Notes: generated by a model from the sequence alone, not told the origin. Counted from the stretch's first letter, positions 6,839 through 52,640 are shown. The stretch: 64,000 bases of DNA from Patescibacteria group bacterium (GCA_028710985.1 JAQTTB010000002.1:6888-70887), one strand, 5' to 3'. Numbers and translations are program-made.

Positions 6839-6882
6839 GTACAGATGAGGGGCGGCGGGGCGCGTTATTGCTCAGCAAGACT

Positions 6883-7423: not shown

Positions 7424-7506
7424 CCAATAGCGATTGTAATTGATAATCCCATCCCAAAGGCAGTGCTTAACGATAACTTAATAAATGTCTAAAATTTTAT
7501 AAAATT

Positions 7507-8343
7507 ATGAAGATAAAAATTTTAGGTTCGGGTGCATGGGAAGGAATTCCAGTTCCATTCTGTAAATGTAAAATTTGCGAATCAGCAAAGAAACCTAATT
7601 CAAAAGATAACAGAACAAGACCGCAAATTTCAATTGAATCGGATGAAGGGCAATTTTTGATAGAAATAAGTCCTGACATTCGCATTCAATCCACAAAATT
7701 TAATTTACCAAATATTAGCAATTTCCTAATAAGTCACTGGCATTTTGACCACATGTATGGCTTATTAGAACTTCATGCATGGATAGAATTTGTTTTAGGA
7801 CAAAAATCAAAATTATTTTGCTCTCAAAAGACAAAAGAATGGCTCGACCAGAGTTTTGGACATATACCAAAAGAAATAATTGTAGTCAAGCCATTTGAAA
7901 AATTTGATTTATTTGGCACAAAAATTACTCCGATACCTCTTTATCACATGAGTGGGCGAGATAATAATACAAAAGAAAACGAATTAGATAATGCGTATGG
8001 TTTTCTTTTAGAAAAAAATGGTAAAAAGGCAATTTATCTCGCCGATTACTATAAATTGCCAAATAAATCTTTAGAACTTGTAAAAGATTCCGATATTATT
8101 ATTGCTGATGGAACTTATCTTTTTGAAGAATCTTTTCCAGACAAACCAGAGCAAAATAATTTAAAAACTGACCCAGACCATTTGCATGGAAAACAAATTC
8201 TTGATTTTGTTAGCGGATTGAATGCTAAGAAAGTGATTTTTCATAGTATTTCACATTTAACAGAAAAATCACATGAGGAACTTCAAAAATTGCTCCCAAA
8301 AAATATGTTTATTTCTTATGATGGAATGGAACTGGAATTATAA
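7507..8343 (+). CDS. MBL-fold metallo-hydrolase
   Basis: HWHFDH motif; 278 aa; single-gene cassette. Confidence 0.7.
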   Translation: MKIKILGSGAWEGIPVPFCKCKICESAKKPNSKDNRTRPQISIESDEGQFLIEISPDIRIQSTKFNLPNISNFLISHWHFDHMYGLLELHAWIEFVLGQKSKLFCSQKTKEWLDQSFGHIPKEIIVVKPFEKFDLFGTKITPIPLYHMSGRDNNTKENELDNAYGFLLEKNGKKAIYLADYYKLPNKSLELVKDSDIIIADGTYLFEESFPDKPEQNNLKTDPDHLHGKQILDFVSGLNAKKVIFHSISHLTEKSHEELQKLLPKNMFISYDGMELEL

Positions 8344-8443
8344 ACGCACTGCCTTTTCCCACCCTTAAAATAGCAATCGCTACTCCTTCGCTCCATTTCA
8401 TTCCGCTCGGGCACGTTGCACTCTCCTCACTTCGTTCGTCGGC

Positions 8444-8538
8444 GGATTTAACAGGGCTTAAAGGGTTCGCTCGTTACACTTCGCTCTCCCAAATTTTTTG
8501 TGTGCGACAAAAAACTTCCCTTAAGCCCGATGTTATGT
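8444..8538 (+). repeat. attC-like site 3 (R'' GGATTTAAC, L'' AGGGCTTAAAGGG, L' CCCTTAAGCCC, R' GTTATGT)
   Basis: R'' is the exact reverse complement of the 9-mer GTTAAATCC that starts this cassette. L'' carries one extra A relative to L', as for an extrahelical base. Confidence 0.7.
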
Positions 8539-8564
8539 GAAATTTTTGTCCTATTTTTATCTAT

Positions 8565-8954
8565 ATGAACATAAAAAAAACTATTTTTAAAACCATTCTT
8601 ATAAATATTCTACTAGTTACAATTACAGCTATTATCTTAAGTTCGGTGTATTTACTTTCAGCACAAAAGACCGATCCAAAAAATTACTTACATATGGAAT
8701 ATTTAGATGACGAATTGCAGAATGGTCATTACATATGTCCGCATTTATGGGACAGATACTCCTATGCATGTGGCACAGGGGACTTAATTTATACTTTTGT
8801 TGTAGGTACTGTTGGTATAATTTTCCTTGCGTACATTCCACTTGGTCCAACTGCAGAATATGCGATTTTGAATTATGCAATTCTTTTGATAATTTTTATC
8901 ACTGTTTATATTGTGTCCAAAAATAGTACAAAAACATCACATAACAGCGTATAG
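8565..8954 (+). CDS. hypothetical small membrane protein (cassette-encoded)
   Basis: 129 aa with 2-3 predicted TM segments. The stop codon lies inside the attC R''/L'' region. Confidence 0.5.
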   Translation: MNIKKTIFKTILINILLVTITAIILSSVYLLSAQKTDPKNYLHMEYLDDELQNGHYICPHLWDRYSYACGTGDLIYTFVVGTVGIIFLAYIPLGPTAEYAILNYAILLIIFITVYIVSKNSTKTSHNSV

Positions 8955-9015
8955 CAGACTACGCTTCGCTCCGTCCAAATTGCTATGCAACTTCTGCTAT
9001 ACGTAAACGTTAGGC
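8938..9015 (+). repeat. attC-like site 4 (R'' CACATAAC, L'' AGCGTATAGCAG, L' CTGCTATACGT, R' GTTAGGC)
   Basis: R'' is the exact reverse complement of GTTATGTG at 8532. Centre contains TCGCTCCGTCCAAATTGC. Confidence 0.7.
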
Positions 9016-9036
9016 GAAATAACAAAAATTACCAAT

Positions 9037-9378
9037 ATGATATATATAATCTGGTTAGTCTTACTTAGCCTCTTTGTTTTTTCTTTCCTTGTTCCCAAAT
9101 TTCCTATCTGGATTCCTGTTTTAGCCTATTTATTGGTAGTTGGCGTGAGAGTTAAAGAAAAATATGGGAATTACTTAGATTGGATTGAAAAAAACCACCG
9201 CGATGAAGAGCGAGCGATTGATGCAAATTTGCATGATTTCGAAATTAAAGGGTTGGCCACAAGCGGAATGCGACTAAAGCAGGAAAATCATATTAAAAAA
9301 GACTTCGAGTATGAACGAAAAAAACAAAAAAGACAAAGAGACACAGAGCTAATCGATTGCTTATTCATAAAAAAGTAA
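9037..9378 (+). CDS. hypothetical small membrane protein (cassette-encoded)
   Basis: 113 aa with a hydrophobic N-terminus and a K/E-rich tail. Confidence 0.5.
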   Translation: MIYIIWLVLLSLFVFSFLVPKFPIWIPVLAYLLVVGVRVKEKYGNYLDWIEKNHRDEERAIDANLHDFEIKGLATSGMRLKQENHIKKDFEYERKKQKRQRDTELIDCLFIKK

Positions 9379-9390
9379 TTTTTGTTACAT

Positions 9391-9824
9391 CGCCTAACAC
9401 GGCATATCTGACTTCGCTTAAAAAACAGATAATTTTATTTACTAATATGCTACAATTATGTACGTACCCGCATGGATTTTCTTCGTCATTATGATAGCTA
9501 TGGCAGCTGCAACTATAGTAATTGATGATCACATAAAAAAGCAGAATAACAAACTAGAAGATCGAATTGATGATATCGAAAAAAGAATTAATGGTATTGA
9601 GGATTTTGTTGGTTTAGACGAAACGGCCCTAAAAGTACATAAGGAGTTGAAGATGGAGCAAGAGATGGATGAAATAACAAGGAATTCTTTTAATAAACAA
9701 GCTGGAAGGAATGTAAAATGAACATAGGATTATCTATTTTTTTAGCTCCGCCCATATTCCGCGCACACATTTTAATTAATAAATTGGGAGTGCGCGAAAC
9801 ATCGGATATGCCGAAACGTTATGT
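9391..9824 (+). repeat. attC-like site 5, enlarged to about 430 bp (R'' CGCCTAAC, L'' CGGCATATC at 9391-9411; L' GATATGCCG, R' GTTATGTG at 9804-9825)
   Basis: R'' is the exact reverse complement of GTTAGGCG at 9009. L''/L' match 9/9 although they lie 390 bp apart. The conserved centre (AGCTCCGCCCATATTCC plus a CGCGCAC..GTGCGCG hairpin) sits in the 3' half. Confidence 0.5.
9458..9721 (+). CDS. hypothetical 87-aa TM/coiled-coil protein carried on an insertion inside attC 5
   Basis: ORF lies between imperfect inverted repeats TAAAAAACAGATAAT (9419-9433) and ATTATCTATTTTTTTA (9729-9744). Confidence 0.4.
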   Translation: MYVPAWIFFVIMIAMAAATIVIDDHIKKQNNKLEDRIDDIEKRINGIEDFVGLDETALKVHKELKMEQEMDEITRNSFNKQAGRNVK

Positions 9825-10746: not shown

Positions 10747-11202
10747 ATGAAAAAACCAAAACTGATAAGAATTGATCTGGACAAGCCGATTACCCGGCTT
10801 GTGGGCAAGAGTGATCACAAAACACTGGGAATCTGGGCGGCTGACTGCGCCGAGCGGGTATTGCACTATTTTGAAGAAAAATATCCAAAAGATAATCGTC
10901 CCCAAAAAGCAATCAAGGCGCTCCGAACGTGGGTTAAGACCGGGGTGTTTAAAATGGCGGATATACGCGGATATTCGCTTGCGGCTCACGCGGCCGCCCG
11001 CGAAGTGAAGGAAGATGACGACGCGGCCCGGTCCGCCGCCCGCGCCGCCGGCCAGGCGGTGGCGACCGCGCATGTTCAGACTCACGCGATCGGCGCCGCA
11101 ATCTATGCCGCCACCGCGGTCCGCGACGCGACCGGCTCAATTGATGCCGCGGCCAAGGAACGCGACTGGCAATACCGCCGCCTGCTCAAAATGATAAAAT
11201 AA
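10747..11202 (+). CDS. hypothetical Ala-rich protein, possibly an immunity-protein-like family
   Basis: 'WAADCAERVL' motif and an Ala-rich helical C-terminal half. Confidence 0.45.
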   Translation: MKKPKLIRIDLDKPITRLVGKSDHKTLGIWAADCAERVLHYFEEKYPKDNRPQKAIKALRTWVKTGVFKMADIRGYSLAAHAAAREVKEDDDAARSAARAAGQAVATAHVQTHAIGAAIYAATAVRDATGSIDAAAKERDWQYRRLLKMIK

Positions 11203-11206
11203 ATTT

Positions 11207-11692
11207 ATGGAATTTCTTGACATCGTTGACCAAAACGACAATGTCATCGGCACGGCTTCCCGGAACGAAGTCTACGAAAAATCGCTGTGCCACCGCATCG
11301 CGCATGTTTTAATATTCAACGAAGAAGGAAAAATTGTTTTACAAAAAAGAAGCGATAAAGTATGCTTTTGCCCGGGCCACTGGTCAACCGCGGTCGGCGG
11401 TCATGTGCAAACCGGCGAAACCTATGAGCAAGCCGCTCTGCGCGAATATCAGGAAGAACTAGGGGCGAAAAGCATACTGGAGTTTGTCGGGAAAGACTTA
11501 TATAATGTTCCCCATACTCCCAATAAATTTCTAACCACCTTCAGAACACAGTTCAATGGTCCATTCGATCCGGACGCTGAAGAGGTTTCCGAAGTCGGAA
11601 TGTTCGATATCCAGGAAATACAAACAATGCTCGAGCGCGGAGAAAAATTTCACCCTGAATTAATATTTATTCTAAAAAAGTATTATCTATGA
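11207..11692 (+). CDS. NUDIX hydrolase
   Basis: Nudix box GGHVQTGETYEQAALREYQEELG. Confidence 0.8.
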   Translation: MEFLDIVDQNDNVIGTASRNEVYEKSLCHRIAHVLIFNEEGKIVLQKRSDKVCFCPGHWSTAVGGHVQTGETYEQAALREYQEELGAKSILEFVGKDLYNVPHTPNKFLTTFRTQFNGPFDPDAEEVSEVGMFDIQEIQTMLERGEKFHPELIFILKKYYL

Positions 11693-39565: not shown

Positions 39566-39740
39566 ATTGATTAATCATATGAGTATAGTCCAAAATTATT
39601 AGTCTGTCAAACGTCTAGCCGAATGTAATCGATATTCAAGCATTGGGAATCAGGAATCAAGAATCATGAATCAGGAATAAAGCCCATCGCAACGCCCCTA
39701 ATTCCTGATTCCTAATTCTTGATTCTCTCCGTAGCAATTA

Positions 39741-39996: not shown

Positions 39997-40260
39997 AGTT
40001 TTTATTGAATTTTGGTTTATTATATAGAAACTCGATGAGAAACTCGACGACTTTTCATATCTTATTTCACCCACACAGTATAGCACATATAGGATAATTA
40101 ATCAAGAGCCAACTAAAAAGCGCCATTTCACAATGGTGCCTCTTAGTTGGCTCCGAGCGGCGCGTGAACTTAGAACCGTTATTCTGAACGGCTGGCACTC
40201 CTACGAAATGGACGCGGCCGTCAAAATGCTCCGCCATGAATCACCGTTCGATATGATAGA

Positions 40261-43200
40261 TTAAGTATTTGTAGGTTCTTTCTCGGCCGTTAAAGATTCT
40301 ACTTCCTTCCAAAAATCCTTTTCTTCTTTTTTTGGATTAGACACTTTAAGTCCTTTAATTCGCTCTACAACAAAAGCTTTATTCTCACCCTCAGGCCAGT
40401 CCTTAAGGCGGGCTAACAAATCTTTAAAATCTTTTTCATAAGCTGGATAGGTTGGTTTCACTTCATCTAAAATTCCAAGAGAAGTCTGCAAGGAGTTCTT
40501 ATCACGATCCGGTCTCAACATATCAAACAAAACATAAACGAAATCTTTAACGGGAGTCTCCTGCATAATTCCTGTTAGGCTAGATACAGTTTTTAAGGCA
40601 AAATGATGAGCTGAAGTTAATATTTTTCCTGGTTGTCTGAGCCAATCCAGAATTTCTTTACCAATCTCTCGTTTTTTCTCTTCTCCCAAAAAGTCAGACT
40701 TGATTAAAAAGTTGAAGCCGGCTTCTTGAGACGCAAGTGCATCAGATTTTATAAGATTTTTAATTTGAGTTACTGCCTGATCTTTCAAATCTACTGGATC
40801 ATTTTTGCTTAATTGAATCGGCAGATAATCATAAACTGCAATTTGTTCTCCAAAAGGGATAGACGTTACTTTAGCCAATAAAGATTTTACAACCATTTGT
40901 CGATCCGGCAGATTATCGCCCAAACTCTTTATAAAATTCAAACTATTTGCACCCTTCTGGTTAATAATATTTTTAAGCAACTCAATCTTTTTATCCTTAT
41001 CTGCTTTTTTGTATACAATTTCTAATAACACATCATCACTCATACTACGAGATAGCAATGGTTTGAAGTAGGTAGATAGAAATTTTTCGGCAGTTTCTTT
41101 TTTCCAATAATCAAATACTAAACCAATCTTAGCGGCTCCAGCGTTTTGGAAGTAACCATTAATCTGAGCTACGAGTTCATTCTGTTGTGCTTCTGGCACA
41201 TAGAAGCTAATCCAACGTAAATTATTAACTAAGCCCGTGCGATTATCCCAAGCCCCAATACTATTAAACGCCTGGATAAAATTCTTTGTAAGCTGAATTT
41301 TAGTGCCGTCATCAACAATCTTAAACTGATCCTGAAATTCACTAAATATATCCCCGCAAGTAGCGAATAAAGTTTCTTTTTCTGCGCGGTAGTCTGGACT
41401 CTCGGTAGTCTCTTTATTTATTACTTCAGTAATTTTTTGCAGAATTATATTAAACTTGTTCTTCTCTGAAATGTATTCCTTAAACTGCTTAATTATTGTA
41501 ATCTGTCCCGATAGACTATCTCGGTTGAAATTAGCGATAAATTTGTCAAACGCCTGGGGAGAAATAAAGGTCGTCTGTTCTTCAAGTGTGCCAAATAGCG
41601 ATATAATATCGAAATTTGTTGAAAAATTCTCATCAATAAACTTAACGATCTGAATTTTATCTTCATCTGCTATTAATGAAGCGTTTTGTTTTAAGTTCGT
41701 AAGAATATCTTTTAATATTGACCCCATATTTGGCTTACGAACCTCTTCTGTTCCCACGGCCAAAACATAGCGCTTAATTAAGGGTGCGCGGAACTGGACA
41801 TCTAGTTCCTGCTTCGTAATAAGGTCAGAAAAAACTAAGTTAGTTTGGAGCTGAGTGAAAAATTGCCATAGATCAGCATCTAAAACACGAGCAAGGGATT
41901 CGTAATATACTTTAGTCGAAGACGAAATCCCCAATTCGTGGAAAGCCTCTAAGTGAGTAGTAAATATTTTAAGCAATATATCTCTCTGGCTCCTATACTC
42001 ACGCAAGAGATGACGGATAAAATCAACTAATGATCCTTTATTGGTTTCCGCCGAGGCAAGTTCCTTAAATTTATCTTTGTTGCCCTCGGCCAAACTCAGT
42101 ATCATTTCCTCTGAATTGTTGAGAGATTGATAAATGGTCGGTTCTTTGAAATAGATAAACGGGCGGGCGTTAGAAACGGTAATACGGCTCGTATTTAACA
42201 TGAAGTTACGTAAATCAGCAGAATCTTTATCTTTTAGAATGTTTTCTGGTTCAAACCATTTATCCTTTAATCGATGATAAGCGGGTGTAAATTTTTGTCT
42301 AAGCACCAATACTTTTGCTAAATAAGCGATATTGTCTTTAATCCTTTGCCATACCTCCGTTTTAGAAGCTAAGACTAATGCTGCTATTAAATTATTTATA
42401 AACTGTTTAATCTCACGAGGATTGTTAGAAAAAGCATTGCTAATCACATAAACAATATCCTCTGAATCTTGACCTTGGAGTAAACTTTTTATTTCGCCGG
42501 TATCATTAATCAGTTTTTTAATATATGCGTGAAGATCGGCTTCAATAAATTCGGGCGTCCAAATTACAACATTAAATAGCTTTCTAAGATATTCTGAAGG
42601 GTCAAAATCTTCATCATCCTGACCACCATAAAAACTTTTGATTTGGCTAATAATGGCTTCTGAATCGCAGGGAACTATAAAAACAAGTCCAGCAACACCG
42701 GCCGGATCAAGGAACGTTTTGATAGCAGAAAGAATTTTTATTGCCGCATCACCCTGAACACGATCAATGTTATCAAAAACTATTACAACTTTTTTATTAA
42801 CTTTTTGAAGTATCAGTCTAAACAGAGCTTCAAATTGCTCCGGGGAGTTTAACCGTTCCTCTTTTTCAACCCTTGTTTTAATAGAGGCAAGTGGATTTAA
42901 CGAAGATAAAAACTTTTCGACCGAGCGTTCCCAAACTTTCTCCAGTAAAGGCTTAAAAAAGAGAGCTAGAACAGAGAATGAAGCTACAACGGCCGCAAAA
43001 TCTTTAATTGTTTGAATAATCAGATTATTATTTTTGAAAATCAAATTTAAAATTACCCATCCGATTACTAAAATCAGAGATAAGACTAAAAGCCAGTTTG
43101 TTTTTAACAACAACCAAACTTTTTTAAGCCATCCGGCAGAGCTTACTTGCATTTCGGCCGTCGTTATTTCGCAACTTTCCTCTGTTGATTTATAAAGAGG

Positions 43201-43536
43201 GTCAAGTATTTTTTTATCCTCGGGCGAAAGTTGTTTTTGACTAATCAGAAAGTTTACTAATTCGATCAAAAAAATTCTGCGTAACGAATCTTCCTGATAT
43301 TTCCATGCATCAAAAACAAACATCGGGCTTTGTAGATCGTGACGTATCATTTCAATGATTGTACTTTTGCCCGTACCCCACCTACTAAAAAGTCCGATGG
43401 TATGAACACAAGAATCGTTTTCTAGTATCTCTTTCATAGCTGGAGCAACGTTCTCATGATAAAAGCCAAAAATACCATCTTGACCATTACCAAGCGGGAC
43501 ATCTTTCAAAAATTTAAATTTTAGTTCTTCGGGCAT
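40261..43536 (-). CDS. KAP-family P-loop NTPase (1091 aa, TM helices inserted into the P-loop domain)
   Basis: Walker A GLFSRWGTGKST; two hydrophobic helices after about residue 130; hhhhDNID Walker B-like (VIVFDNIDR). Confidence 0.7.
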   Translation of the reverse strand: MPEELKFKFLKDVPLGNGQDGIFGFYHENVAPAMKEILENDSCVHTIGLFSRWGTGKSTIIEMIRHDLQSPMFVFDAWKYQEDSLRRIFLIELVNFLISQKQLSPEDKKILDPLYKSTEESCEITTAEMQVSSAGWLKKVWLLLKTNWLLVLSLILVIGWVILNLIFKNNNLIIQTIKDFAAVVASFSVLALFFKPLLEKVWERSVEKFLSSLNPLASIKTRVEKEERLNSPEQFEALFRLILQKVNKKVVIVFDNIDRVQGDAAIKILSAIKTFLDPAGVAGLVFIVPCDSEAIISQIKSFYGGQDDEDFDPSEYLRKLFNVVIWTPEFIEADLHAYIKKLINDTGEIKSLLQGQDSEDIVYVISNAFSNNPREIKQFINNLIAALVLASKTEVWQRIKDNIAYLAKVLVLRQKFTPAYHRLKDKWFEPENILKDKDSADLRNFMLNTSRITVSNARPFIYFKEPTIYQSLNNSEEMILSLAEGNKDKFKELASAETNKGSLVDFIRHLLREYRSQRDILLKIFTTHLEAFHELGISSSTKVYYESLARVLDADLWQFFTQLQTNLVFSDLITKQELDVQFRAPLIKRYVLAVGTEEVRKPNMGSILKDILTNLKQNASLIADEDKIQIVKFIDENFSTNFDIISLFGTLEEQTTFISPQAFDKFIANFNRDSLSGQITIIKQFKEYISEKNKFNIILQKITEVINKETTESPDYRAEKETLFATCGDIFSEFQDQFKIVDDGTKIQLTKNFIQAFNSIGAWDNRTGLVNNLRWISFYVPEAQQNELVAQINGYFQNAGAAKIGLVFDYWKKETAEKFLSTYFKPLLSRSMSDDVLLEIVYKKADKDKKIELLKNIINQKGANSLNFIKSLGDNLPDRQMVVKSLLAKVTSIPFGEQIAVYDYLPIQLSKNDPVDLKDQAVTQIKNLIKSDALASQEAGFNFLIKSDFLGEEKKREIGKEILDWLRQPGKILTSAHHFALKTVSSLTGIMQETPVKDFVYVLFDMLRPDRDKNSLQTSLGILDEVKPTYPAYEKDFKDLLARLKDWPEGENKAFVVERIKGLKVSNPKKEEKDFWKEVESLTAEKEPTNT

Positions 43537-43603
43537 ATTTTTACTTTTTCACTACTTCTTCTACTAAAGATTTTATTTTCCAGATTTGGTCTAGTTACTT
43601 TGT

Positions 43604-44773
43604 TTACCGATTACCTTTTGCTCGATTGTGTGTCTTGCAAAGCATCTGGCAGTTTTTTGCTGAAGTTGCACCTCCCTTGCTCCAGGCTGCTACATGGTCT
43701 GCGTCCATTTCGCTAAAACTCCAAATCTTACTCTTGTTAGCATCATGCCCAATGGCACAATGCGGGCAGTTTGATTCGTCTTTTTTCTCTGCCTTGACGG
43801 TTTGTGTTGTATAAACCGTCTTTTTGGTTGCTTCATCAAAAACTCGGACTTCAAGTAATTTTGTGTCAATGGAACCACCAAGAATATACTCAAAAATACC
43901 TTTGCGATTTTTAACATACGGATCAGCATAGAGCTTCTGTACCTCGGCTGATACTTTGGCTGGATTGTACGATTTTTTATGGTGTTCCTCATAAAGTCGC
44001 CCCCACTCAAGACCGCGCATCTCGCTTTCAACATTAGTAAACACACTAGAAACCCAATCGATCACGCTGTTGAAATATTTTTTTAATTCATTAATATTTT
44101 TTTCAAAACGATGACGACTCATATAATCGCCGATATTACCTTTGCTTACCCAATCCAGCGCACATTCTAAAAATTCCTGCCGGTTAGCGCTACCGGATAC
44201 ATACGCGCTCCATTTTTGAATGTTGGCGTTTTGGCTATTACTAAATTCCTCCTTGCCGAGCGTTACAAACGGCCCGGAATACACCGCATTAAGTAATTCC
44301 TGACCATTAAGTGGAACACCGGCAATATTAATTGTTTTGAACCACTCTTTTATCTCGCTTTCTTTCCCTTCGCATTCGTAAATAAGTAAAGTAGTTTTTA
44401 AAATTTTACCCTGTTTGTCTTTTGCCATACCGCTAAAATATTGCTCCATGCCGTTTTCGTCTTTGATAGCAAATTTGTCAGTTATAAACCGCCCAAGACT
44501 AGTGATGCGTTGCTGGCCGTCTAAAACCTCTAAATTGTTGTCGCTTACTTTGTTAAAATAGATCAATCCTATCGGGTACTCTTTGAGGACTGATTCAATG
44601 ACGGCCATTTCTTTTTTACCACCATCAGAAGCATAAATATAATTGCGTTGATACTCCGGTTGAATGGTCAATTTACCAGACAAACCGAACAAACCCTTAC
44701 CTTCAAGTTCGTTATAGACAAACCCATCGCAAATATCTTTAACAGTAATATTAATTTTTAAAGTTGTTTTCAT
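43604..44773 (-). CDS. DUF262 (ParB-like) plus HNH nuclease; GmrSD/BrxU-like type IV restriction-type enzyme
   Basis: DUF262 motifs IQPEYQRNY and [11 protein letters not shown]-terminal HNH: CPHC...[12 protein letters not shown]...[15 protein letters not shown]. Confidence 0.7.
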
Positions 44774-45966
44774 ATTATTTTTTTCTTATGTTTAATAAGC
44801 ACTCTTTGATAAACTTTTTCCAATAAACCATCTCGAATAATTACTCCACTTGCGTTCAAGTCATAGGTTCCTGTTTTCCCGAATTTATCTAAATACGCCT
44901 GTTTACATTCTGCGGATGTATACACTTTTGTTTTTTGTTTATATAAATCTTCATTCTCACACATTCCAACAATCTTAAACTGCTCGGGGCTATATTTATC
45001 AAGAATACTGACCGGTACTCCCATTACGCCGCTGTAATCGCTCGGGATATTTTTTACTAACGACACTTCTATCGCGTTATAATTTTCATATTTCTCAAAC
45101 GGTTTTTTCATTACGAACTTTATCACCTCTGCCTTGGTCATGAGTGGGAGTGGCTGATGACGACGCCCATGGTCAAGATTGGTAAACCAGCGAACACCCT
45201 GCACTCTAGTGACATATACTTTTTTTCCGCTTTCATTTGTTTTTATTTCACGAACCTGCTCTAAATTGGCAATGTTTTCGGGTATCTCAAAAAACATTGC
45301 ACCGGCATTAACTTTGTAATTATTACCTAACCAAACTTTATTCTCTTTAAGTAATGGGAATATTTCTTTGTAGGTAATCGCGTTCAGGTTGCCGATGATC
45401 AAAAACTTTTTATCATACTTAACAAGTTGTTTTATGTACTCGCGAAATAGACTGAACGGCGGATTAGTTACCACAATGTCAGATTGTTTCAATAGATTAA
45501 TGGACTCATCGCTGCGAAAGTCGCCGTCGTCCTTTAGCGGCATCCATTCGTTATGTTTGTTTGCCTTTAACTGCTTAGCAATGTCTTTCAAGTTGAACTC
45601 GCCATCGCCGTCTATATCGCGCACTTCGTTAATAATGAACTTGTTGGCATTTATCTTTGGACGGCCTTTTGATTTAGTAAGAGTTTTGTCATCGCCAAAT
45701 AATTCCAGTTGCGTATTGGCAACGGGCGAGGGTTTGTAACTAGTGGTGATAAGCTGCTTCAATCCAAGCTTGTTGAAATTAAGCACGAAATAGCGGAAAA
45801 AATTGCTCTCAAACGGGTCGTCGCAGTTACAATACACCACCTTGCCTCGAAATACGTTAGGATCGTATTCCAAATACGCCTCAATCTCTTTCTGAATATC
45901 GCTGTACTGAGTATAAAACTCGTCATTCTTTACTTTTTTTGCGTTTGCAAGATTTTTGTTTGCCAT
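44770..45966 (-). CDS. N6-adenine DNA methyltransferase (NPPF motif; EcoRI-methylase-like family)
   Basis: N-terminal KNDEFYTQ and motif IV VVTNPPF. Overlaps the downstream DUF262-HNH gene by 4 bp. Confidence 0.65.
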
Positions 45967-45970
45967 AAAA

Positions 45971-46675
45971 TTATTTTTCGTTATCTAGGGCAAGCTTCAG
46001 TAAAAATATCGTCTCGGCTCTGAGTTTCGACTTCACCCAAGCTTTCTGCTTCTCGTCTAGAAGTTCGCCCATACCGGAAAGAATATTGCGGTCACTGACT
46101 TTCTCCAAAGAGTTAATGCATTTTTGTAAAAAATCTTTATAAGACGTTCCTGTTCGGCCCTCTATAATTTCTTTATTCACCGGCCAGTTATTATGCAAAA
46201 AATAATACACGTCAAAAATATCACGATTAGTCTTACCGATGCGTTCATACATCGCACAAAGTTTATGAGCCAACATATCTTCCTTCACCATGACTTTCAT
46301 AGAGATGCCAAGGTATGCCTTTACTTCATACCTCGATCCAAAATTCCGGCGATTTATTTCCACCTTAATATTTTGAGCACCGATTTCCTTATCATCGTAA
46401 GAAAGTAAAAATAAAAGATTGAACCTTTTCGTTTGAGCTTCTTTAATGGTGCCGTAGGCACTTAAAATCTTTTGAATTTGTTCAAAGACATAATCTTCCT
46501 TACTCTCTTCCAACAGATCAAAATCCAAGTCTACTGAAAAACGATTGAGATCATAAAAAAGAAAGGCGGCTGTACCTCCTTTGAATCCCAAAAGCGGTCC
46601 AATAGTTGAATCAGTGTAAATGTCTTTTAAAATTCTGACGAGAATATTTTTGTGTTTTACTGTATCAAGTGACAT
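45971..46675 (-). CDS. AbiEii/DUF1814 nucleotidyltransferase toxin
   Basis: GFKGGTAAFLFYDLNRFSVDLDFD motif. Confidence 0.75.
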   Translation of the reverse strand: MSLDTVKHKNILVRILKDIYTDSTIGPLLGFKGGTAAFLFYDLNRFSVDLDFDLLEESKEDYVFEQIQKILSAYGTIKEAQTKRFNLLFLLSYDDKEIGAQNIKVEINRRNFGSRYEVKAYLGISMKVMVKEDMLAHKLCAMYERIGKTNRDIFDVYYFLHNNWPVNKEIIEGRTGTSYKDFLQKCINSLEKVSDRNILSGMGELLDEKQKAWVKSKLRAETIFLLKLALDNEK

Positions 46676-46680
46676 AGAAT

Positions 46681-47313
46681 TTATTTGGGATTATTTATTA
46701 AAGACTCGTGATATTTTTTGACCATTCTCTCCATTCGTTTATTACCTCCGTAGATAGGCAAGATTAAGTTAACTTTGTCCCAATCCAAAACTGACAAATT
46801 ATCAAAATGATAATCCGTGTTTAAATAAACAACATCTAAAAATGCTCTTTCAGTCGAAGCAATACTGTAATTATCTTTTATTTCGATGCCGGCATTGTTA
46901 GTGAGAATTTCGTCTTTAATCCTTTTGAAAGCAACTACTTGCCCATCGCATTCAATTTCTTTATTTTGGTACGAAGCAACAAAAATTTTAGAGTAGTGTT
47001 GAAAGGTTACACCGGCCGATCCGAGGACGGTTTCAAAACTGACGTAAGAAGGCGTAAATATTTTGGTAGCTAACTCATATTTGTCGTAATTTTTGTCCTT
47101 GGCATAAAGACCGCGACGTATATGGTAAAGATTATTGTGTTTAGTATAGTAATTAACCCTTGAACCAGCGGTAAGCTTGTCAATTCCTCCCCAAAGCAAA
47201 ATAAGGTCTTTGAAAGAAAAAACCGTTTTGCTTGATCTCAATATTTCGTTTAAAAAGCCTTTTTCCATATGTTTGAAGTTAAATATAAGACCCTGCCTTA
47301 TGTTCAACTCCAA
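46681..47313 (-). CDS. AbiEi-like antitoxin / transcriptional regulator
   Basis: Directly upstream of AbiEii; N-terminal wHTH-like region with IRRGLYA; 210 aa. Confidence 0.65.
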   Translation of the reverse strand: MELNIRQGLIFNFKHMEKGFLNEILRSSKTVFSFKDLILLWGGIDKLTAGSRVNYYTKHNNLYHIRRGLYAKDKNYDKYELATKIFTPSYVSFETVLGSAGVTFQHYSKIFVASYQNKEIECDGQVVAFKRIKDEILTNNAGIEIKDNYSIASTERAFLDVVYLNTDYHFDNLSVLDWDKVNLILPIYGGNKRMERMVKKYHESLINNPK

Positions 47314-47367
47314 TTATATGATATAATCAATAAGAGTGCAAGAGCTAAGGGGATAAACAAAACAACT

Positions 47368-47445
47368 GATTAATCACTGTCTTATAATATAATAAGACAT
47401 GTAATTTTTTAGAAATAAAGAAGCCTTATTATATTATAAGGCTTG
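47368..47445. promoter_or_regulatory. two related palindromes in the divergent promoter region (candidate AbiEi operators)
   Basis: GTCTTATAATATAATAAGAC and AAGCCTTATTATATTATAAGGCTT sharing the core CTTATwATATwATAAG. Confidence 0.4.
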
Positions 47446-47453
47446 AATAACTT

Positions 47454-48398
47454 ATGAGAAAACAGCTTAAAGCAATAATTAATAAGCTAAACAAACGGCC
47501 AATATCTTCTTTGACCGGCGATGAATTTGATGTGTATTTTGAACACCGAATGGATAACTTGATATGTGATAAAAAGGTCCTCACTAAAAATGAGCTTGTC
47601 TATCTCCTTTCCGAAACCGGTCCCGGTAATCGACGCATTGATCCGCGATTAGTATTAAAGCTTGTCGATCAAAACATTCTAGTTTCTTCCATACTTGGGG
47701 CTTTACCTGAAATGACAAAATTAAAAGGCCAAAAAGAAAAAGTGGATAAATATATACTCGACCATAAAAGCTCTAAGGAAACTAAACAATCAATTATTAA
47801 ATTGATTGGGAGTTATCTAAAAAATGTAAAAATGATTTCAGATGATCCCTTTATAATCGAAGCCACATTTAAGAATATGCCAATCTCCTGCCTGATAAAA
47901 AACGGTGGCTGGATATTTCCGGATTCAGAATTATTTTCTTTTCTAAGCGCAGTTCAAAAACAAAAAAGGTTTCCAATAGTAATTGCTAAAAAGATATCGG
48001 GTATTCTTTTTCCGGTATTTAAGGGATTGTCGATTTTAGGTTTAAATCTATACAAAACCCTTTTGCCAGAGGAGGGAGAAAAGTTAATAACTAGCTCTAT
48101 TTATAAACCAAAAGAGAGTTTTCTATCAGAGCTGAAGTATAACGGTCAGTTTCAATTTTTAACAAGAGAATACGTTGAAAATATCCAAGACGAATATTGG
48201 AATGGCGATCCGCTAAAAAACTTCTTTGAGAATGTCTTGCTCGGAAATATATCTACTTATTACGAGAATTTCTCAAATTTGAAAATAAATATTACCGATA
48301 ATTTTGCCGATACTGTATCTCAGTTCAGAAAAAACAAAACGACAAAAAATTTACTTGAAATGTATAAAACGCAAGAAAAGATTATTAGCGCTAAATAA
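47454..48398 (+). CDS. hypothetical protein (314 aa, AT-rich, defence-island context)
   Basis: ORF only; no recognised motif. Confidence 0.45.
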   Translation: MRKQLKAIINKLNKRPISSLTGDEFDVYFEHRMDNLICDKKVLTKNELVYLLSETGPGNRRIDPRLVLKLVDQNILVSSILGALPEMTKLKGQKEKVDKYILDHKSSKETKQSIIKLIGSYLKNVKMISDDPFIIEATFKNMPISCLIKNGGWIFPDSELFSFLSAVQKQKRFPIVIAKKISGILFPVFKGLSILGLNLYKTLLPEEGEKLITSSIYKPKESFLSELKYNGQFQFLTREYVENIQDEYWNGDPLKNFFENVLLGNISTYYENFSNLKINITDNFADTVSQFRKNKTTKNLLEMYKTQEKIISAK

Positions 48399-48721
48399 TT
48401 TCCGTCAACTTCTTGTCAGCTTTTGTCAGAATAATTTATCCACAGATGGACCTATTGACCGCGGCCTTTCCGGTCCGCTATTATAAAAGCATAAGAGATA
48501 GGAGTTTGCCTGACGGCGTTCCGATTTATCGGAACTAAGTGTGACGGGGCTACGACTTCTGTCATCAAGCACTACGTGTTTTTTTGCTTGATGATGTGAA
48601 GTGGTAGCCCTTTTTTGTTTTTCAATTAAAAGTTAATTCCCTCTGAGGTTAAGTGCCTCGATAAGAAAGCTTAGTATTTGAATAGAAAGATAAAGGCTAG
48701 TCCCAGCGGGGCCAGCCTTTT

Positions 48722-48922
48722 ATGTTGCCCCAAGAAGCTATACAAGAATTTAAAGAATTATACGAGAAACGCTACGGCGTAAAACTCTCCGATGAGGAGG
48801 CTTCTTTGCGCGCCAACAATCTTTTTAAACTCTACAAAATAACTTATATGGGTGAGCCATCTATTGATGACTTCCAAGAAAAAGTAGTGAAAAGCCATGA
48901 CTTACAACCAAACCACAATTAG
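48722..48922 (+). CDS. small hypothetical protein (66 aa)
   Basis: ORF only. Confidence 0.25.
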   Translation: MLPQEAIQEFKELYEKRYGVKLSDEEASLRANNLFKLYKITYMGEPSIDDFQEKVVKSHDLQPNHN

Positions 48923-49208
48923 CGAAATCCAATTCTATCCGGTTAAACCCAAGGACGGTCTCCTCGGGTTTGTTTCGTTTGTCCTGGACGGCAAATTCTG
49001 GATGGGATCGGTGGCCGTGTTCAGCCGGCCGGCCGGCCGATACCGGCTGGTTTATCCCACACGCAAAGTGGGAGGCCAGAACATAAACATTTTTCATCCG
49101 ATTACCCATGAAGCCGGCCAGGAGGTCGAAATGGCCATTAATGAAAAAGTAGCTGAATTACTTAGTGAAAATTATGAATCAGACGAACCAACCCAAAACA
49201 CGTGGTAA
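48897..49208 (+). CDS. SpoVG-family protein
   Basis: IQFYPVKPKDGLLGFVSFVLDGKFWMGSVAVF...INIFHPITHEAGQEV resembles SpoVG. Confidence 0.55.
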   Translation: MTYNQTTISEIQFYPVKPKDGLLGFVSFVLDGKFWMGSVAVFSRPAGRYRLVYPTRKVGGQNINIFHPITHEAGQEVEMAINEKVAELLSENYESDEPTQNTW

Positions 49209-49608
49209 AAGCTTTAATTTCTTTCCGGCTCCTCACGCTCTCTTTGACGATGAAAAACTGCGTCGTACTTTGACTCACGCCGAACGCGACTTTTTAATGG
49301 CTTTATGCCATCTCACCAACCGCCACGGCAATAAGGACGGCTGGTTTTGGCACATCGACGAAACATTTATAACGCGAGAGAACAAAGAACACGGTTTCGC
49401 TTCATTGGGTTTTAGCCGGTCCACTTGCCGGCGCGTCAGAAAAAAATTGATCAACATGGGACTCATAGAAATAAAACCGGGCACGATGGAACGTGGCCGC
49501 TGGGTCGGAACGATGTACCGTCTCAACCCGCGATTGCTGAAAACGACGGGGGTTCAAAATGAAGCACGGTCAGGCACCATAGAGAACCCCGGCCCGGGAC
49601 CACCATGA
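49165..49608 (+). CDS. putative replication-initiator-like wHTH protein
   Basis: FFPAPHALFDD...ERDFLMALCHL...GFSRSTCRRVRKKLINMGLIEI wHTH pattern. Located directly upstream of an iteron-like repeat field. Confidence 0.35.
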   Translation: MKIMNQTNQPKTRGKSFNFFPAPHALFDDEKLRRTLTHAERDFLMALCHLTNRHGNKDGWFWHIDETFITRENKEHGFASLGFSRSTCRRVRKKLINMGLIEIKPGTMERGRWVGTMYRLNPRLLKTTGVQNEARSGTIENPGPGPP

Positions 49609-49689
49609 AGCACTAAGTAATAAAGATTGAGTAAGAAAAAATAATTAATAAAAAGCTTAAATAAAGCAAGCAAGCTTGCTGAAAAATTA

Positions 49690-50010
49690 AAAAATAGGGG
49701 TTGGGCAAAGCTTGGGTGAAACTTGGGTAGATTTCGATCCATTGAATGGCGACCAAAGGCGACTAAAAGGCGACCAGAAAATGAGGGTAAGGTGTGGGTG
49801 AAATGAGGGTGGAATTTGGGAATTATGGTTGCACTAAAATGCACTAAACCTGCACCAAAATTGGAGAAATCAGACTGGGGCAAAACTGGGGTGAAATTGG
49901 GGCAGCTTTTGGGAGAATCGTCTGCGACAAGGCATCGGGGAAACATCGGGTATTTTGGCGGACACGGCCGGATGAAATCGGTACAAAATCGGTATAAGAT
50001 TTGACCCTCC
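49690..50010. repeat. field of phased short direct repeats / A-tracts (iteron-like, predicted curved DNA)
   Basis: GGCGACCAAA / GGCGACTAAAA / GGCGACCAGAAA; TGCACTAAAA / TGCACTAAACC / TGCACCAAAA; CTGGGGCAAAA / CTGGGGTGAAA / TTGGGGCAG; AATGAGGGT x2; CTTGGGT x2; CATCGGG x2; AATCGGTA x2. Each unit recurs with a 10-11-bp period. Confidence 0.6.
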
Positions 50011-50119
50011 TCTTATTAAAAAATCAATAAAACGGTAAAATAGAAATATACGTTTGACTTACTTCGACCTTAGGCCCATGTTGTGTGTAGAAAGGTCGAA
50101 ACAAACAATTAAATAATTA

Positions 50120-50995
50120 ATGAACAAAACTATGACTAAAAACGCCAAAATTTACGCCGTAATCGCCATTGTAGCGGTTCTTGGGGCAGGTTACGGAGTT
50201 TATCACCTCTTAGGCAACAATGCACCGCGTGGGGCCGAAACAACAGACATGGCCTCCATTACGAACTTTGACCAGTGCGTCGAAGCGGGATTCGCCATAA
50301 TGAAGTCCTATCCCGAGCAATGTATGACTTCCGACGGACGGATTTTCGTAAACCAAAATCCGCCGGCAGAAAGCGAACTCAATAAAGCCGAAGAAGCGAT
50401 CCGCACTTTTATGGGAGAGCCGAATCTGGAGTTGCAATACACCGGCCAGAATAATCATCTCTCCAACTTCGCAGTCTTGAGCAACGTCAAACAAAACGAC
50501 GGCGGGTTCACGGCCGACAATCCAGAAGAATGGGATCGCCCGATTTACATTTTTCAACAAAAAGATTTTATCAACGACCGCTGTGAAATTTACGAATACG
50601 AAGTGAGCACGAAAACCTACCAGGTCATCCAGGTCGGCATCAGATATCCACAGGAGCGTAGCGCAGTCATGCCAGGCAACTGCCCTGGCAACGGATCGCT
50701 GGACTGGCCGCTTATGAGCAAAGACGAAATCGAACAGGCCGCGTTCTCATACCTCGGCCATGATCCGGAACACACTAAGTTTTTAATAAGGTCTGACATC
50801 CAGCCGCAATACATATCCAGCAAACCGGACGCGAAAAATCCGGCGGCCAATGAATGGCGCTGGGAGGATAAAAGCTACAAATTGCCGGACGGACTTATGG
50901 GCGACCCATGGCCTTATCCGACTATGAGAATAATAATGTCGGCCGGCGGTAAGTTGGTTTATTACCTGAACACCACCGACCTATTTAAAAACTAA
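50120..50995 (+). CDS. hypothetical membrane-anchored protein (291 aa)
   Basis: N-terminal TM. The stop overlaps the recombinase start (ATGA). Confidence 0.5.
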   Translation: MNKTMTKNAKIYAVIAIVAVLGAGYGVYHLLGNNAPRGAETTDMASITNFDQCVEAGFAIMKSYPEQCMTSDGRIFVNQNPPAESELNKAEEAIRTFMGEPNLELQYTGQNNHLSNFAVLSNVKQNDGGFTADNPEEWDRPIYIFQQKDFINDRCEIYEYEVSTKTYQVIQVGIRYPQERSAVMPGNCPGNGSLDWPLMSKDEIEQAAFSYLGHDPEHTKFLIRSDIQPQYISSKPDAKNPAANEWRWEDKSYKLPDGLMGDPWPYPTMRIIMSAGGKLVYYLNTTDLFKN

Positions 50996-50996
50996 T

Positions 50997-52607
50997 ATGA
51001 ACCAGGAAGTACAACCAAAATTCAAGTACTTCCTCTACGCTCGAAAATCTTCAGAACAAGAAGATAGACAGGTCCTTTCGATTGACTCGCAAAAGAGCGA
51101 ACTGGAAGCGCTTGCAAAAAGAGAAAAGCTCCAAATTGTGGAGCGTCTGGAAGAATCATACTCGGCCAAAGCACCGGGCCGTGAGATTTTCAATCAGATG
51201 ATAAAACGGATAGAGAAAGGCGAAGCTGAGGGCATAATCGCCTGGCATCCGAACCGGCTCTCGCGTAATTCCGTGGACACCGGATACCTGGTCTATCTCA
51301 TGGATCAGAACAGGCTTCAGGACATACGTACACCCGGTCAGGCCTATCGAAACACACCGAATGATAAATTTCTTCTTAACCTCCTGTGTAGTCAGGCTAA
51401 ACTTGAAAATGATAATAAGGGTATTGATGTAAAACGCGGACTAAGGCGCAAGGTAGAAATGGGTTGGCACCCTGGGCCAGCACCGGTTGGCTATATGAAC
51501 ACGCCAGATAAGCTGAAAGGTTTTAAAACGATCCGCAAAGACCCGAAGATGTTTCCGATTGTTCGGAAAATGTTTGATATGCTTTTAAGCGGAGATTTTA
51601 CCGCTCCCCGTGTTCATGAGATTGCTATTAGCAATTGGGGCGTAAAGAAATTAGCGCGAAGCGGATTCTACCGCGTGCTTTATAATCCTTTCTATTATGG
51701 CTGGTTTGAATGGCCACAAGGCTCAGGTAACTGGCACAAAGGCAAGCACGAGCCGATGATCACACGCGACGAATACGACCGAGTCCAAAAACTACTCGGC
51801 CATGGGAGCAAACCAAAACCGGAAACCCACACTTTCGCTTACACCGGCATGATTCGTTGCGGCGAGTGCGGCTGTATGGTTACGGCCGAGAATAAAATAA
51901 AGAAAAACAAAAACGGCAACGTCCATCACTACACCTATTATCACTGCACTAAAAGAAAAGGTCCGTGCAGTCAGAAATGCATTGAGGTGGATGAACTGGA
52001 AAAACAGATCAAAAAAACGTTGGCCAAAGTTCAGCCACCGGAAGAATTCCACGGCTGGGCAATGAAGTGGCTTCAGAACGAAAACGGACGCGAGGCGGCC
52101 GATCGAAACGCAATACTTTCCAACCAACAAAAGAATTACGAAGTCTGCGTGAAAAAACTAGACGCTTTAATTGATATGCGCGCCGCCGGCGAGATCAGCG
52201 AAGAAGAATTCACACGCAAGAAATCGGAAGTCAACCAGGAAAAAGCCAAGTTGCACGAACTTCTAAATGACACTGACAGCCGCATAGACAGCTGGCTTCA
52301 GACGGCCGATAACATTTTAACCTTCGCCGGCGACGCCAACGAAGCGTTCACAGAACGAGGCCAGCATGCGAGAAAAGTAATTTTGTCTGCCCTCGGTTCG
52401 AACCTCCTCTTAAAAGACAAAAACATAAGAATTGACACGGATTCCGCGCTTCTGCCGTTAATTCTTGTCTCATCCGGGTCAAATCAAAAAATTGGACGGT
52501 TAGAACCTGCCCAAATAGGCTCTAATAAAGAGAAAAGCGGAGCTTTTGGCTCCGCAAATCCCACATGGCTCTGGGGGTGGGATTCGAACCCACGACCAAT
52601 TGGTTAA
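50997..52607 (+). CDS. large serine recombinase (integrase)
   Basis: N-terminal resolvase domain (YARKSSEQEDRQVLSIDSQ), recombinase domain and zinc ribbon (CGECGC...YYHC). The ORF 3' end runs into the tRNA-Asn 3' end, so the true stop may be earlier. Confidence 0.85.
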   Translation: MNQEVQPKFKYFLYARKSSEQEDRQVLSIDSQKSELEALAKREKLQIVERLEESYSAKAPGREIFNQMIKRIEKGEAEGIIAWHPNRLSRNSVDTGYLVYLMDQNRLQDIRTPGQAYRNTPNDKFLLNLLCSQAKLENDNKGIDVKRGLRRKVEMGWHPGPAPVGYMNTPDKLKGFKTIRKDPKMFPIVRKMFDMLLSGDFTAPRVHEIAISNWGVKKLARSGFYRVLYNPFYYGWFEWPQGSGNWHKGKHEPMITRDEYDRVQKLLGHGSKPKPETHTFAYTGMIRCGECGCMVTAENKIKKNKNGNVHHYTYYHCTKRKGPCSQKCIEVDELEKQIKKTLAKVQPPEEFHGWAMKWLQNENGREAADRNAILSNQQKNYEVCVKKLDALIDMRAAGEISEEEFTRKKSEVNQEKAKLHELLNDTDSRIDSWLQTADNILTFAGDANEAFTERGQHARKVILSALGSNLLLKDKNIRIDTDSALLPLILVSSGSNQKIGRLEPAQIGSNKEKSGAFGSANPTWLWGWDSNPRPIG

Positions 52608-52640
52608 CAGCCAACTGCTCTGCCACTGAGCTACCCCAGA
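52566..52640 (-). tRNA. tRNA-Asn (GTT), CCA encoded
   Basis: Cloverleaf folded by hand: acceptor TCTGGGG/CCCCAGA, D arm GCTC-AGTGGCA-GAGC, anticodon loop CTGTTAA, T arm GTGGG-TTCGAAT-CCCAC. Confidence 0.85.

Follow-up and report, generated by a model that had tools for sequence, protein, structure and literature searches.

A predicted 12.4-kb integrative defence island with its own large serine recombinase at the 3' end of tRNA-Asn in a Patescibacteria genome

Genes and features of the locus

The window analysed here is the whole 64,000-nucleotide stretch of DNA from a Patescibacteria group bacterium (GCA_028710985.1 JAQTTB010000002.1:6888-70887), and all positions are counted from its first letter. 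Between csp and the asparagine tRNA gene tRNA-Asn(GTT) it carries a block of defence genes, a group of small conserved genes with a field of short repeats, and a gene for a large serine recombinase (LSR) that runs into the tRNA. Positions 40150-52571 very probably form a 12.4-kb integrative island that was inserted by its own LSR at the extreme 3' end of tRNA-Asn(GTT). The element measures 12,418 bp from attL core to attR core, and its GC content is 0.36 over 40-49 kb (cargo) and 0.47 over 49-52.6 kb (core), with about 0.50 in the flanks. The features that carry this reading are as follows.

40106-40153, no strand assigned: putative B arm, the native tRNA-Asn trailer, a hairpin with 22-nt arms beginning with GAGCCA (inverted-repeat search and sequence)
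40150-40153, plus strand: attL core GCTC, within the shared hexamer TGGCTC (40148-40153), adjoining csp
40154-40264, plus strand: P' arm and detached tail exon of 36 codons, RAARELRTVILNGWHSYEMDAAVKMLRHESPFDMID and then a stop, in frame with ...ANPTWL of the recombinase
50997-52607, plus strand: LSR in its integrated form, 536 aa, of which 525 are encoded by the element and 11 come from the tRNA complement
52537-52555, minus strand: predicted replacement terminator, hairpin GCGGAGC-CAAAA-GCTCCGC followed by TTTTCTCTTT (terminator scan), antisense within the recombinase coding sequence (P arm)
52566-52640, minus strand: tRNA-Asn(GTT), the integration target, intact (ARAGORN; Rfam 73.8 bits)
52568-52571, plus strand: attR core GCTC, inside the 3' end of tRNA-Asn, positions 71-74 on the tRNA strand
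Predicted attP junction, joined across the core: ...CACATGGCTCCGAGCGGCG...
Predicted attP, 52571 joined to 40154: ...GCAAATCCCACATGGCTCCGAGCGGCGCGTGAACTTAGAACC...
Predicted attB, the tRNA plus the hairpin at 40106-40153: tRNA-Asn ...CCCCCAGAGCCAACTAAGAGGCACCATTG...

The recombinase

A preliminary description of this DNA had reported a 536-aa LSR ending inside the 3' end of tRNA-Asn, and both its domains and the overlap were found. The open reading frame (ORF) overlaps the 3' end of the tRNA by 42 nt, its last 11 residues (WGWDSNPRPIG) are tRNA complement, and the codons TGG CTC at its end are the reverse complement of the tRNA's GAGCCA. Pfam matches comprised Resolvase (PF00239, 2.6e-20, residues 12-156), Recombinase (PF07508, 28.6 bits at a cut-off of 21.1) and Zn_ribbon_recom (PF13408, 34.4 bits at a cut-off of 25.3), and a PHROG integrase family matched at 3e-65. 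The best matches by sequence in the PDB, SPbeta SprA (2e-8) and A118 Int, are distant. Y14-x-R16-x-S18 and R87/R90 are conserved across 36 relatives, the zinc-ribbon cysteines C288, C291, C317 and C324 are invariant in the alignment, and a SHOCT or helical match covers residues 387-411, a candidate coiled coil; the alignment to SprA extends through residue 433. The catalytic resolvase, recombinase and zinc-ribbon domains stand in the order typical of LSRs, and the att core is very short. Throughout the tRNA-Asn subfamily, N86 (residues 85-86 at window 51250-51255) replaces the usual D of the DRLxR pocket, and some relatives have S.

The two junctions and the detached tail exon

The hexamer TGGCTC occurs at 40148-40153 and again at 52566-52571. 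A repeat search of the window gave no repeat longer than this short shared core between the two ends, and no long direct repeat of the tRNA; the earlier statement that serine integrases leave no usable repeat was therefore right as to length, and a shared core of 4-6 bp is nevertheless present. Since no long repeat was available, attL was placed by the homology of the distal end in relatives (loci with L or P handles in the following). The DNA to the right of attL is 86-91% identical to the distal ends in L004, L092 and L128; the matching stretch of L004, some 9 kb upstream of its recombinase, shares 91% identity with window 40150-40228. In L128, L092, L004 and L001, this tail is likewise preceded by a GCTC core, and what stands to the left of these cores is unrelated DNA. 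Two distal boundaries had been suggested from composition, one near 40.1-40.3 kb beside csp and one near 48.4-48.7 kb: the former holds, now on grounds of homology and with the attL core at 40150-40153, while the position at 48.4 kb turned out to be the internal junction between cargo and core.

The five attL junctions of the window and its relatives have only GCTC in common before the P' arm, and the window's tRNA and P' arm diverge directly after GCTC, which places the crossover within these four bases (G71-A72-G73-C74 on the tRNA strand). The central crossover dinucleotide is probably TC or CT, the non-palindromic candidates in this sequence.

The recombinase and its close homologues can be aligned collinearly as far as ...ANPxWL, past which the sequences diverge, and it is with this point that the 36-codon tail exon at attL is in frame. 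Its amino-acid identity to the tails in L128, L092, L004 and L001 is 78-94%, and the ratio of non-synonymous to synonymous polymorphism (pN/pS) was 0.08-0.43 in ten pairwise comparisons; the substitutions being mostly synonymous, the exon is under purifying selection in relatives and hence translated. In a search of 1.8 billion representative proteins, the 36-aa tail was found only in small called ORFs, and no full-length LSR with a RAARE tail was returned. Several of these small ORFs are recombinase-like C-termini fused in frame to the tail (...NPNWL|RAVRELRTV, ...YSQNPILL|RAVRELRTV and ...RPDWL|RAARELRTV). At 40261-40264 the tail exon (plus strand) and the neighbouring KAP NTPase gene (minus strand) share TTAA through their overlapping stop codons, so the cargo starts exactly where the tail ends.

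The tRNA target, its terminators and an empty site

A comparison with relatives for an empty tRNA-Asn site and a search for the attL and attR core had both been proposed in the preliminary description, and both were productive: GCTC lies at both junctions, and L147 is empty. The empty site was found via homologues of TypA, as an RpoD scan of species-representative genomes was too conserved to help (the nearest were 64-74% identical, with contigs often ending at tRNA-Asn). Neither RpoD nor the LSR had an exact match in the contig collection. L147 is the closest relative found, with a TypA 86% identical, and runs dnaG, rpoD, two genes, tRNA-Asn, hairpin and T-run, TTGATTAATT, typA, with no element. 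It is an empty site from another species, with a partly rearranged neighbourhood and no csp. The flanking TypA matches a protein of an NCBI metagenome-assembled genome labelled 'Patescibacteria group bacterium' at 100% identity; its next relatives are 79-86% identical and, where named, are Magasanikbacteria or Falkowbacteria.

A hairpin with a T-run directly follows the end of the tRNA in the L147 empty site and is also present at attL of L128, and TTGATTAATT lies just beyond the hairpin in both L147 and the window. The hairpin left of attL in the window is accordingly read as the original terminator of the tRNA, now parted from it. In its place, 10 nt downstream of the tRNA's CCA, stands the hairpin at 52537-52555, which is antisense within the recombinase gene. 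Across 34 loci, 99.6% of the alignment cells at its stem were paired (22-52% in slid controls), and three of seven pairs showed compensatory changes. This covarying antisense hairpin behind the CCA argues that the element rebuilds the last tRNA bases and brings a new, predicted terminator; as the junctions are placed here, it is the element that supplies the last bases (about AGCCA).

In both L147 (9478-9790) and L116 (12250-12620), a tRNA-Asn fragment and a small GIY-YIG-like ORF lie beside an intact tRNA-Asn, which suggests homing-endonuclease activity at the tRNA locus.

Predicted course of integration

In the proposed mechanism, attP would sit inside the last codons of the recombinase gene, with ...ANPTW-L as the P arm and the 36-codon tail exon as the P' arm, and strand exchange would occur within the 4-bp core GCTC. 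Integration would rebuild the terminal tRNA bases, give the tRNA a new terminator and move the tail exon 12.4 kb away to attL. The integrated recombinase would thereby end with 11 residues from the tRNA complement, in exchange for a tail of 36 aa. The excised form would encode a 561-aa enzyme ending RAARELRTV...MID, a predicted length near the 539-565 aa seen in homologues with non-tRNA sequence behind them. The element may be active at present, may be excised, probably with the help of a directionality factor, and may replicate as an episome from its iterons.

Conserved core, winged-helix gene and iteron field

The right part of the element is a conserved core of 4.2 kb (48396-52571), and similarity starts sharply at 48396 in six relatives. 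Apart from the recombinase it contains the following.

48396-48721, plus strand: left edge and leader of the core, with TTGTCAG twice, a promoter-like TTGACC-18-TATTAT (48455-48484, promoter scan) and large hairpins
48722-48922, plus strand: 66-aa core protein, 68-98% identical in more than 25 relatives and always first in the module
48897-49208, plus strand: SpoVG-like protein, 103 aa, conserved in relatives
49165-49608, plus strand: winged-helix DNA-binding protein, 144-147 aa, candidate iteron-binding initiator
49690-50000, no strand assigned: iteron field, arrays of three 10-11-bp units, the top-scoring region of the window
50120-50995, plus strand: 291-aa protein with an N-terminal transmembrane anchor (hydrophobic anchor read from the translation)

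The module of 66-aa gene, SpoVG-like gene, winged-helix gene, repeat field and recombinase was conserved in more than 25 loci. The 291-aa membrane protein is variable (30-87% identity, or absent, in relatives) and gave no family match in Pfam, PADLOC or PHROG. The leader matched no Rfam family, and the 66-aa protein had neither a family match (PHROG included) nor a PDB match; that it might be the directionality factor is a guess.

The membrane protein, the iteron field and the defence genes named in the preliminary description all lie where it had put them, while two of its gene assignments have to be worded more cautiously. The SpoVG-like gene is present with a borderline match (Pfam 1.2e-6, 29.0 bits at a cut-off of 29.6; PDB SpoVG at E 0.016). 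For the gene that had been called Rep-like, the winged helix stood up and Rep did so less well: the 147-aa protein matched PHROG replication-initiator and DnaD-like families through its N-terminal part (7e-8 to 1e-5) and had no Pfam family. An AlphaFold (AF2) model built from 22 homologues had a predicted local distance difference test score (pLDDT) of about 90 in its core, and Foldseek gave generic winged-helix matches only, none at E<=1e-3, with CodY, MarR and ScpB ranking above a staphylococcal Rep-DNA complex (5kbj, rank 17). The model thus supports a winged helix; Rep is a possibility, and the fold search did not separate Rep from a regulator.

Directly behind this gene, the iteron field holds four arrays of 3 x 11 bp where 0.05 were expected, and none of 2000 shuffles reached four. 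Within a yrAAAn frame that all of them share, each array carries a word of 5-6 nt of its own (TTGGG, GGCGAC, TGCAC, TGGGG, besides degenerate ones). In relatives, the same or other words (TTGGAT, CTTCAT, GGCGGA, CATCGG, TGTCGG) are differently combined, and the array modules are shuffled in the equivalent region of L087, L090, L096, L115, L116, L117 and L121. The position of the field beside the winged-helix gene is conserved, which makes the repeats candidate initiator sites. Their multi-word design fits no type of origin or centromere that I can name.

Neither a relaxase, a coupling-protein or type IV secretion gene nor an oriT was detected in the window's element (Pfam, PADLOC, PHROG), which leaves it outside the definitions of integrative conjugative elements (ICEs) and of integrative mobilizable elements (IMEs). 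Inovirus, prophage, satellite and ICE identities were tried and rejected for want of hallmark genes.

Variable defence cargo

Between tail exon and core, directly downstream of the former, lies a variable low-GC cargo (40261-48395).

40261-43536, minus strand: KAP-family P-loop NTPase, 1091 aa (Pfam KAP_NTPase 2e-24; PADLOC PDC-S20/QatA-like 1e-19)
43604-44773, minus strand: DUF262 (GmrSD_N) plus HNH restriction endonuclease (Pfam; PADLOC REase_II 2.4e-78, full length)
44770-45966, minus strand: EcoRI-like N6-adenine DNA methyltransferase, partner of the endonuclease (Pfam EcoRI_methylase 1e-123; PADLOC MTase_II 2e-102)
45971-46675, minus strand: AbiEii nucleotidyltransferase toxin (Pfam AbiEii 7e-18; PADLOC 3.7e-80)
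46681-47313, minus strand: AbiEi antitoxin/regulator (PADLOC AbiEi 2.8e-56)
47454-48398, plus strand: 314-aa ORF, the last gene before the conserved core, not conserved in relatives

The 314-aa ORF had no match in Pfam, PADLOC or PHROG. The genes found between tail exon and core edge differ among relatives (L004, L098, L099, L103, L107, L109, L120): L098, L107 and L120 have AbiE, L099, L103 and L109 have restriction-modification systems of other kinds, and L004 has OLD/AAA, DpnI and DUF4365.

Elsewhere in the window, a second low-GC island (GC 0.29-0.40, about 3.2-9.8 kb, region 2368-9800) adjoins a 270-aa tyrosine recombinase (2368-3180, minus strand) and holds a D12-class adenine methyltransferase (3474-4532) and a protein of metallo-beta-lactamase fold (7507-8343). 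Nested palindromes of GAATCAGGAAT / ATTCCTGATTC, with arms of 25-27 nt, lie outside the element between typA and csp (39631-39727).

The recombinase family and its tRNA targets

A metagenome scan for the family returned 60 loci with 34 distinct right junctions, of which 17 fall in intact tRNA-Asn(GTT) and 7 in intron-containing tRNA-Asn. All 24 tRNA-Asn junctions fall on this one TGGCTC, and the tRNA-Asn sequences differ among the hosts. The intron belongs to group I and sits between T35 and T36 of the anticodon loop (Rfam RF00028, with 87 bits for L117 at 11065-11412), and such tRNA-Asn genes, which ARAGORN missed, also stand at the LSR junction in L091, L092, L099, L102, L107/L108 and L111. 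The seven copies had at one point been taken for truncated tRNA-Asn genes, displaced 3' halves left by another integrase; the Rfam group I intron ruled this out.

In a wider search, 7,850 relatives of the recombinase were scored, the few named being Patescibacteria. At only 26-41% identity, recombinases were seen to terminate within tRNA-Gly(TCC), -Ala(GGC), -His, -Trp and -Gln. Among the 120 homologues that ranked best (about 50% identity and up), three classes of C-terminus were distinguished: tRNA-complement peptides of the form L-xxx-[DE]SN, in which D-S-N corresponds to the T-loop's GAT TCG AAC; stops that come early, within the tRNA; and, in roughly 19 of the 120, attP-type tails of the form L-xxxxx-[VIF]-R-T, in which the last residues are GTT CGA AC. 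The motif of the attP-type tails is GTTCGAAC shifted by 5 nt. TTCGAA begins 11 nt past the core in tRNA arms and TT(C/A)GAA 16 nt past the core in P' arms (TTAGAAC at this distance from attL in the window), so the P' arm is a mimic of the T-arm displaced by 5 bp. In the A118 integrase-DNA structure, attP and attB half-sites reportedly differ by a 5-bp shift of the zinc-ribbon motif. The zinc-ribbon domain may thus read the T-loop of the tRNA (TTCGAA) and, in P', its mimic 5 bp further out.

About a quarter of the family recombinases are followed by a P'-type arm and not by a tRNA (L001 at 10311, L004 at 11575, L093, L096 at 11575 and L116 at 11572; P0004, P0007, P0011, P0017 and P0020), and several of these lie inside chromosomal contigs. 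In L116, tRNA-Asn and rpoD come 1 kb further on; in L001, the P'-type recombinase is followed by fmt, def and priA, and in L096 by cargo-like genes. The left junction of L004 resembles a decayed recombinase end fused to a RAARE tail. The simplest account of the chromosomal attP-state copies is possibly tandem accretion, in which a new arrival enters at the P|tRNA junction and its tail falls to the older recombinase; such a course would, however, need an attR-like site as recombination partner, something that canonical serine integrases avoid.

Decayed derivatives were seen at three loci. Defence cargo abuts only the last 26 recombinase codons and tRNA-Asn in L146 (6632-7464), L128 (1-1660) is a 1.27-kb mini-element of attL and a truncated recombinase, and L097 (121-1840) has a 38-bp P' remnant directly upstream of a recombinase gene. 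Recombinases in the attP state with about 50% identity (L154, L156, L157) have TrwB/FtsK-like ATPase, Replic_Relax, PDDEXK and HTH_17 genes on their flanks. As these distant members sit with TrwB/FtsK-like and Replic_Relax genes, the recombinase type appears to be shared among different kinds of element, including islands like the integrative conjugative elements of actinomycetes (AICEs).

Taken jointly, I tentatively propose, as a possibility well short of an even chance, a large undescribed LSR clade, mostly of Patescibacteria, that uses the acceptor end and T-arm of tRNAs as attB and combines T-loop reading with a 5-bp-shifted mimic, an integration-sensing tail swap that biases directionality, an antisense replacement terminator and tandem build-up of defence islands.

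Alternative explanations

The assignment as an integrative island rests on att junctions defined at both ends, an LSR gene that abuts attR, presence/absence polymorphism (the empty site in L147), atypical GC content and variable cargo. The preliminary description had named, as findings that would refute it, relatives carrying the same genes at the same position with no variability and a recombinase that is a conserved chromosomal resolvase; the relatives instead show an empty site, variable cargo and a recurrent junction. Several points weigh against the island as described. The empty site is not that of this exact element or species but of a relative with 86% TypA identity, whose neighbourhood is partly rearranged and lacks csp. 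Nothing in the element was recognised as a directionality factor, transfer function or replication enzyme. The B arm has no symmetry to the tRNA half-site, which is unusual for attB sites of LSRs; indeed, no convincing dyad symmetry was found either between B arm and tRNA half-site or between P and P' arms, and the inverted P arm matches GTGGGATT of the window's tRNA in register but without covariation with host tRNAs. The subfamily has N for D in the DRLxR pocket, and about a quarter of the family members are attP-like inside chromosomal contigs, which a simple model does not predict.

Could the mobile unit be smaller, or no longer mobile at all? A unit of only the 4.2-kb core (48396-52571), with the defence block at 40.2-48.4 kb as a separate older island or as host DNA, would agree with the sharp left similarity edge at 48396 that six relatives share, with the GC step from 0.36 to 0.47 at about 49 kb, and with the core of L096, which abuts RsgA, SOR and GNAT genes and not defence genes. 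It is nevertheless highly improbable: the P' tail exon needed to complete the ORF is found on the far side of the cargo, at 40154, flanked by GCTC and the tRNA-trailer hairpin, it lies beyond different cargo in L004 and L092 too, and 48396 has no att core or TTCGAAC motif. I also give little credence to a fixed, immobile island in which the recombinase is a domesticated chromosomal resolvase or invertase and the tRNA overlap a relic. The 536-aa ORF is intact, with R16/S18, RxxR and the four zinc-ribbon cysteines, and so are both att junctions and the tail exon, the tail being under purifying selection. Such immobility would accord with the want of direct excision evidence, the decayed derivatives in L146, L128 and L097, and the D-to-N exchange in the DRLxR pocket, but N86 is found across a subfamily whose members entered many host tRNA-Asn genes with different cargo.

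Other readings concern the lifestyle of the element. An integrated plasmid or replicative episome, with the winged-helix protein acting as Rep on the iterons and the plasmid state as the main lifestyle, is a real if minority possibility. The PHROG replication-initiator and DnaD-like matches of the 147-aa protein, the highly non-random iteron field immediately downstream of its gene, as in Staphylococcus aureus pathogenicity islands (SaPIs), phage-inducible chromosomal islands (PICIs) and lambdoid origins, and the many family members in the attP state all point this way. On the other hand, the protein is a single small domain with generic winged-helix matches, CodY and MarR ranking above plasmid Rep; the element lacks a helicase, a primase and a partition gene; of the attP-state copies, several are located in chromosomal contigs, and no circular contig was found among the contig parts examined. 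Of the earlier proposal of an integrative, possibly plasmid-derived element, the integrative part is thus well borne out, while plasmid descent hangs on a weak PHROG match and a generic winged helix. Its size of 12 kb, the tRNA-site integrase, the Rep-like protein beside an iteron origin and the defence cargo are also typical of phage satellites, and no autonomous transfer genes were found; a prophage remnant or PICI-like satellite that needs a helper phage for packaging and transfer is still unlikely, given that neither Pfam nor PHROGs gave any element ORF a match to genes for capsid, terminase, portal or packaging redirection, and that IMG/VR yielded no close relatives and only three distant profile matches.

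An LSR-borne integrative island at tRNA-Asn therefore remains the preferred reading, and it bears on a group of bacteria whose mobile elements are poorly described: how Patescibacteria (candidate phyla radiation, CPR) gain and exchange anti-phage systems is largely obscure. The locus offers a precisely delimited and recurrent vehicle, with a conserved 4.2-kb core and an exchangeable defence slot. The family is unusual in that the last bases of a tRNA are targeted, attP would lie in the integrase ORF, a coding tail is detached and an antisense terminator would repair the target. If T-loop recognition with a 5-bp offset is true, the family would allow the half-site spacing model for attP/attB discrimination to be tested in a natural setting and could supply integrases directed at tRNA sequences of high conservation, and retargeting between tRNA species would be easy.

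Comparison with known systems

The LSRs of temperate phages (A118/LI Int, SPbeta SprA, Bxb1, phiC31) resemble the recombinase in domain order (resolvase, recombinase and zinc ribbon, with a candidate coiled coil inserted), in the very short att core and in the absence of long repeats. Identity to the characterised enzymes is very low (E about 1e-8), and the element differs from these phages in its Patescibacteria host, in targeting the 3' end of a tRNA and not a protein gene or intergenic site, in an attP predicted to lie in the enzyme's own last codons, and in that no directionality factor was identified. In SaPIs, PICIs and lambdoid origins, iterons stand next to the initiator gene. The iteron field is similar to these in its short repeats about one helical turn apart, downstream of an initiator-like gene; it differs in having several three-unit arrays with different words, shuffled between relatives, and in being paired with a single small winged-helix domain without helicase or primase.

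Among tRNA-site elements, the islands of tyrosine integrases (Islander/TIGER; Williams 2002, cited in PMC12884075) likewise have the integrase beside a tRNA, a restored 3' end, variable cargo and odd composition, but use identity blocks of tens of bp with a duplicated tRNA 3' fragment, where the present element has 4-6 bp and a serine recombinase. The tycheposons known from Prochlorococcus, 27 of 937 of which carry an LSR, are small elements of modular build at tRNA sites (bioRxiv 10.1101/2020.12.28.424599); they share the combination of integrase, replication-associated genes and exchangeable cargo at a tRNA, while host phylum and core genes differ and neither primase, helicase nor polymerase is present in the element described here. 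For a Paracoccus phage, a serine recombinase at tRNA-Met has been reported, and tRNA goes unmentioned in the large LSR survey by Durrant et al. A full-text literature search, whose incomplete coverage makes it weak evidence, gave no description of a Patescibacteria serine integrase at tRNA 3' ends.

An attP inside a gene is known from the repressor of mycobacteriophage BPs (PMC3694055, PMC4557955) and from SSV-type archaeal integrases (PMC8371274), which are tyrosine-integrase systems. As in these, integration would change the C-terminus of an element-encoded protein, so that free and integrated products differ; in BPs it is the repressor that is altered, losing a degradation tag, and here it would be a serine recombinase. 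The serine integrases of streptococcal ICEs at rumA provide a further parallel: one end of the short repeat lies in the integrase gene, and integration exchanges 3' parts and changes the C-terminus of the integrase (Ambroset et al. 2016, PMC4701971). The altered integrase C-terminus is common to both. The ICEs are conjugative and alter a protein-gene target, whereas the present element has no conjugation genes, would rebuild its tRNA unchanged with a replacement terminator, and has a detached, conserved tail exon of 36 codons. The general kind of element, an integrative defence island, is known; its att architecture and its host clade appear to be undescribed in the literature searched.

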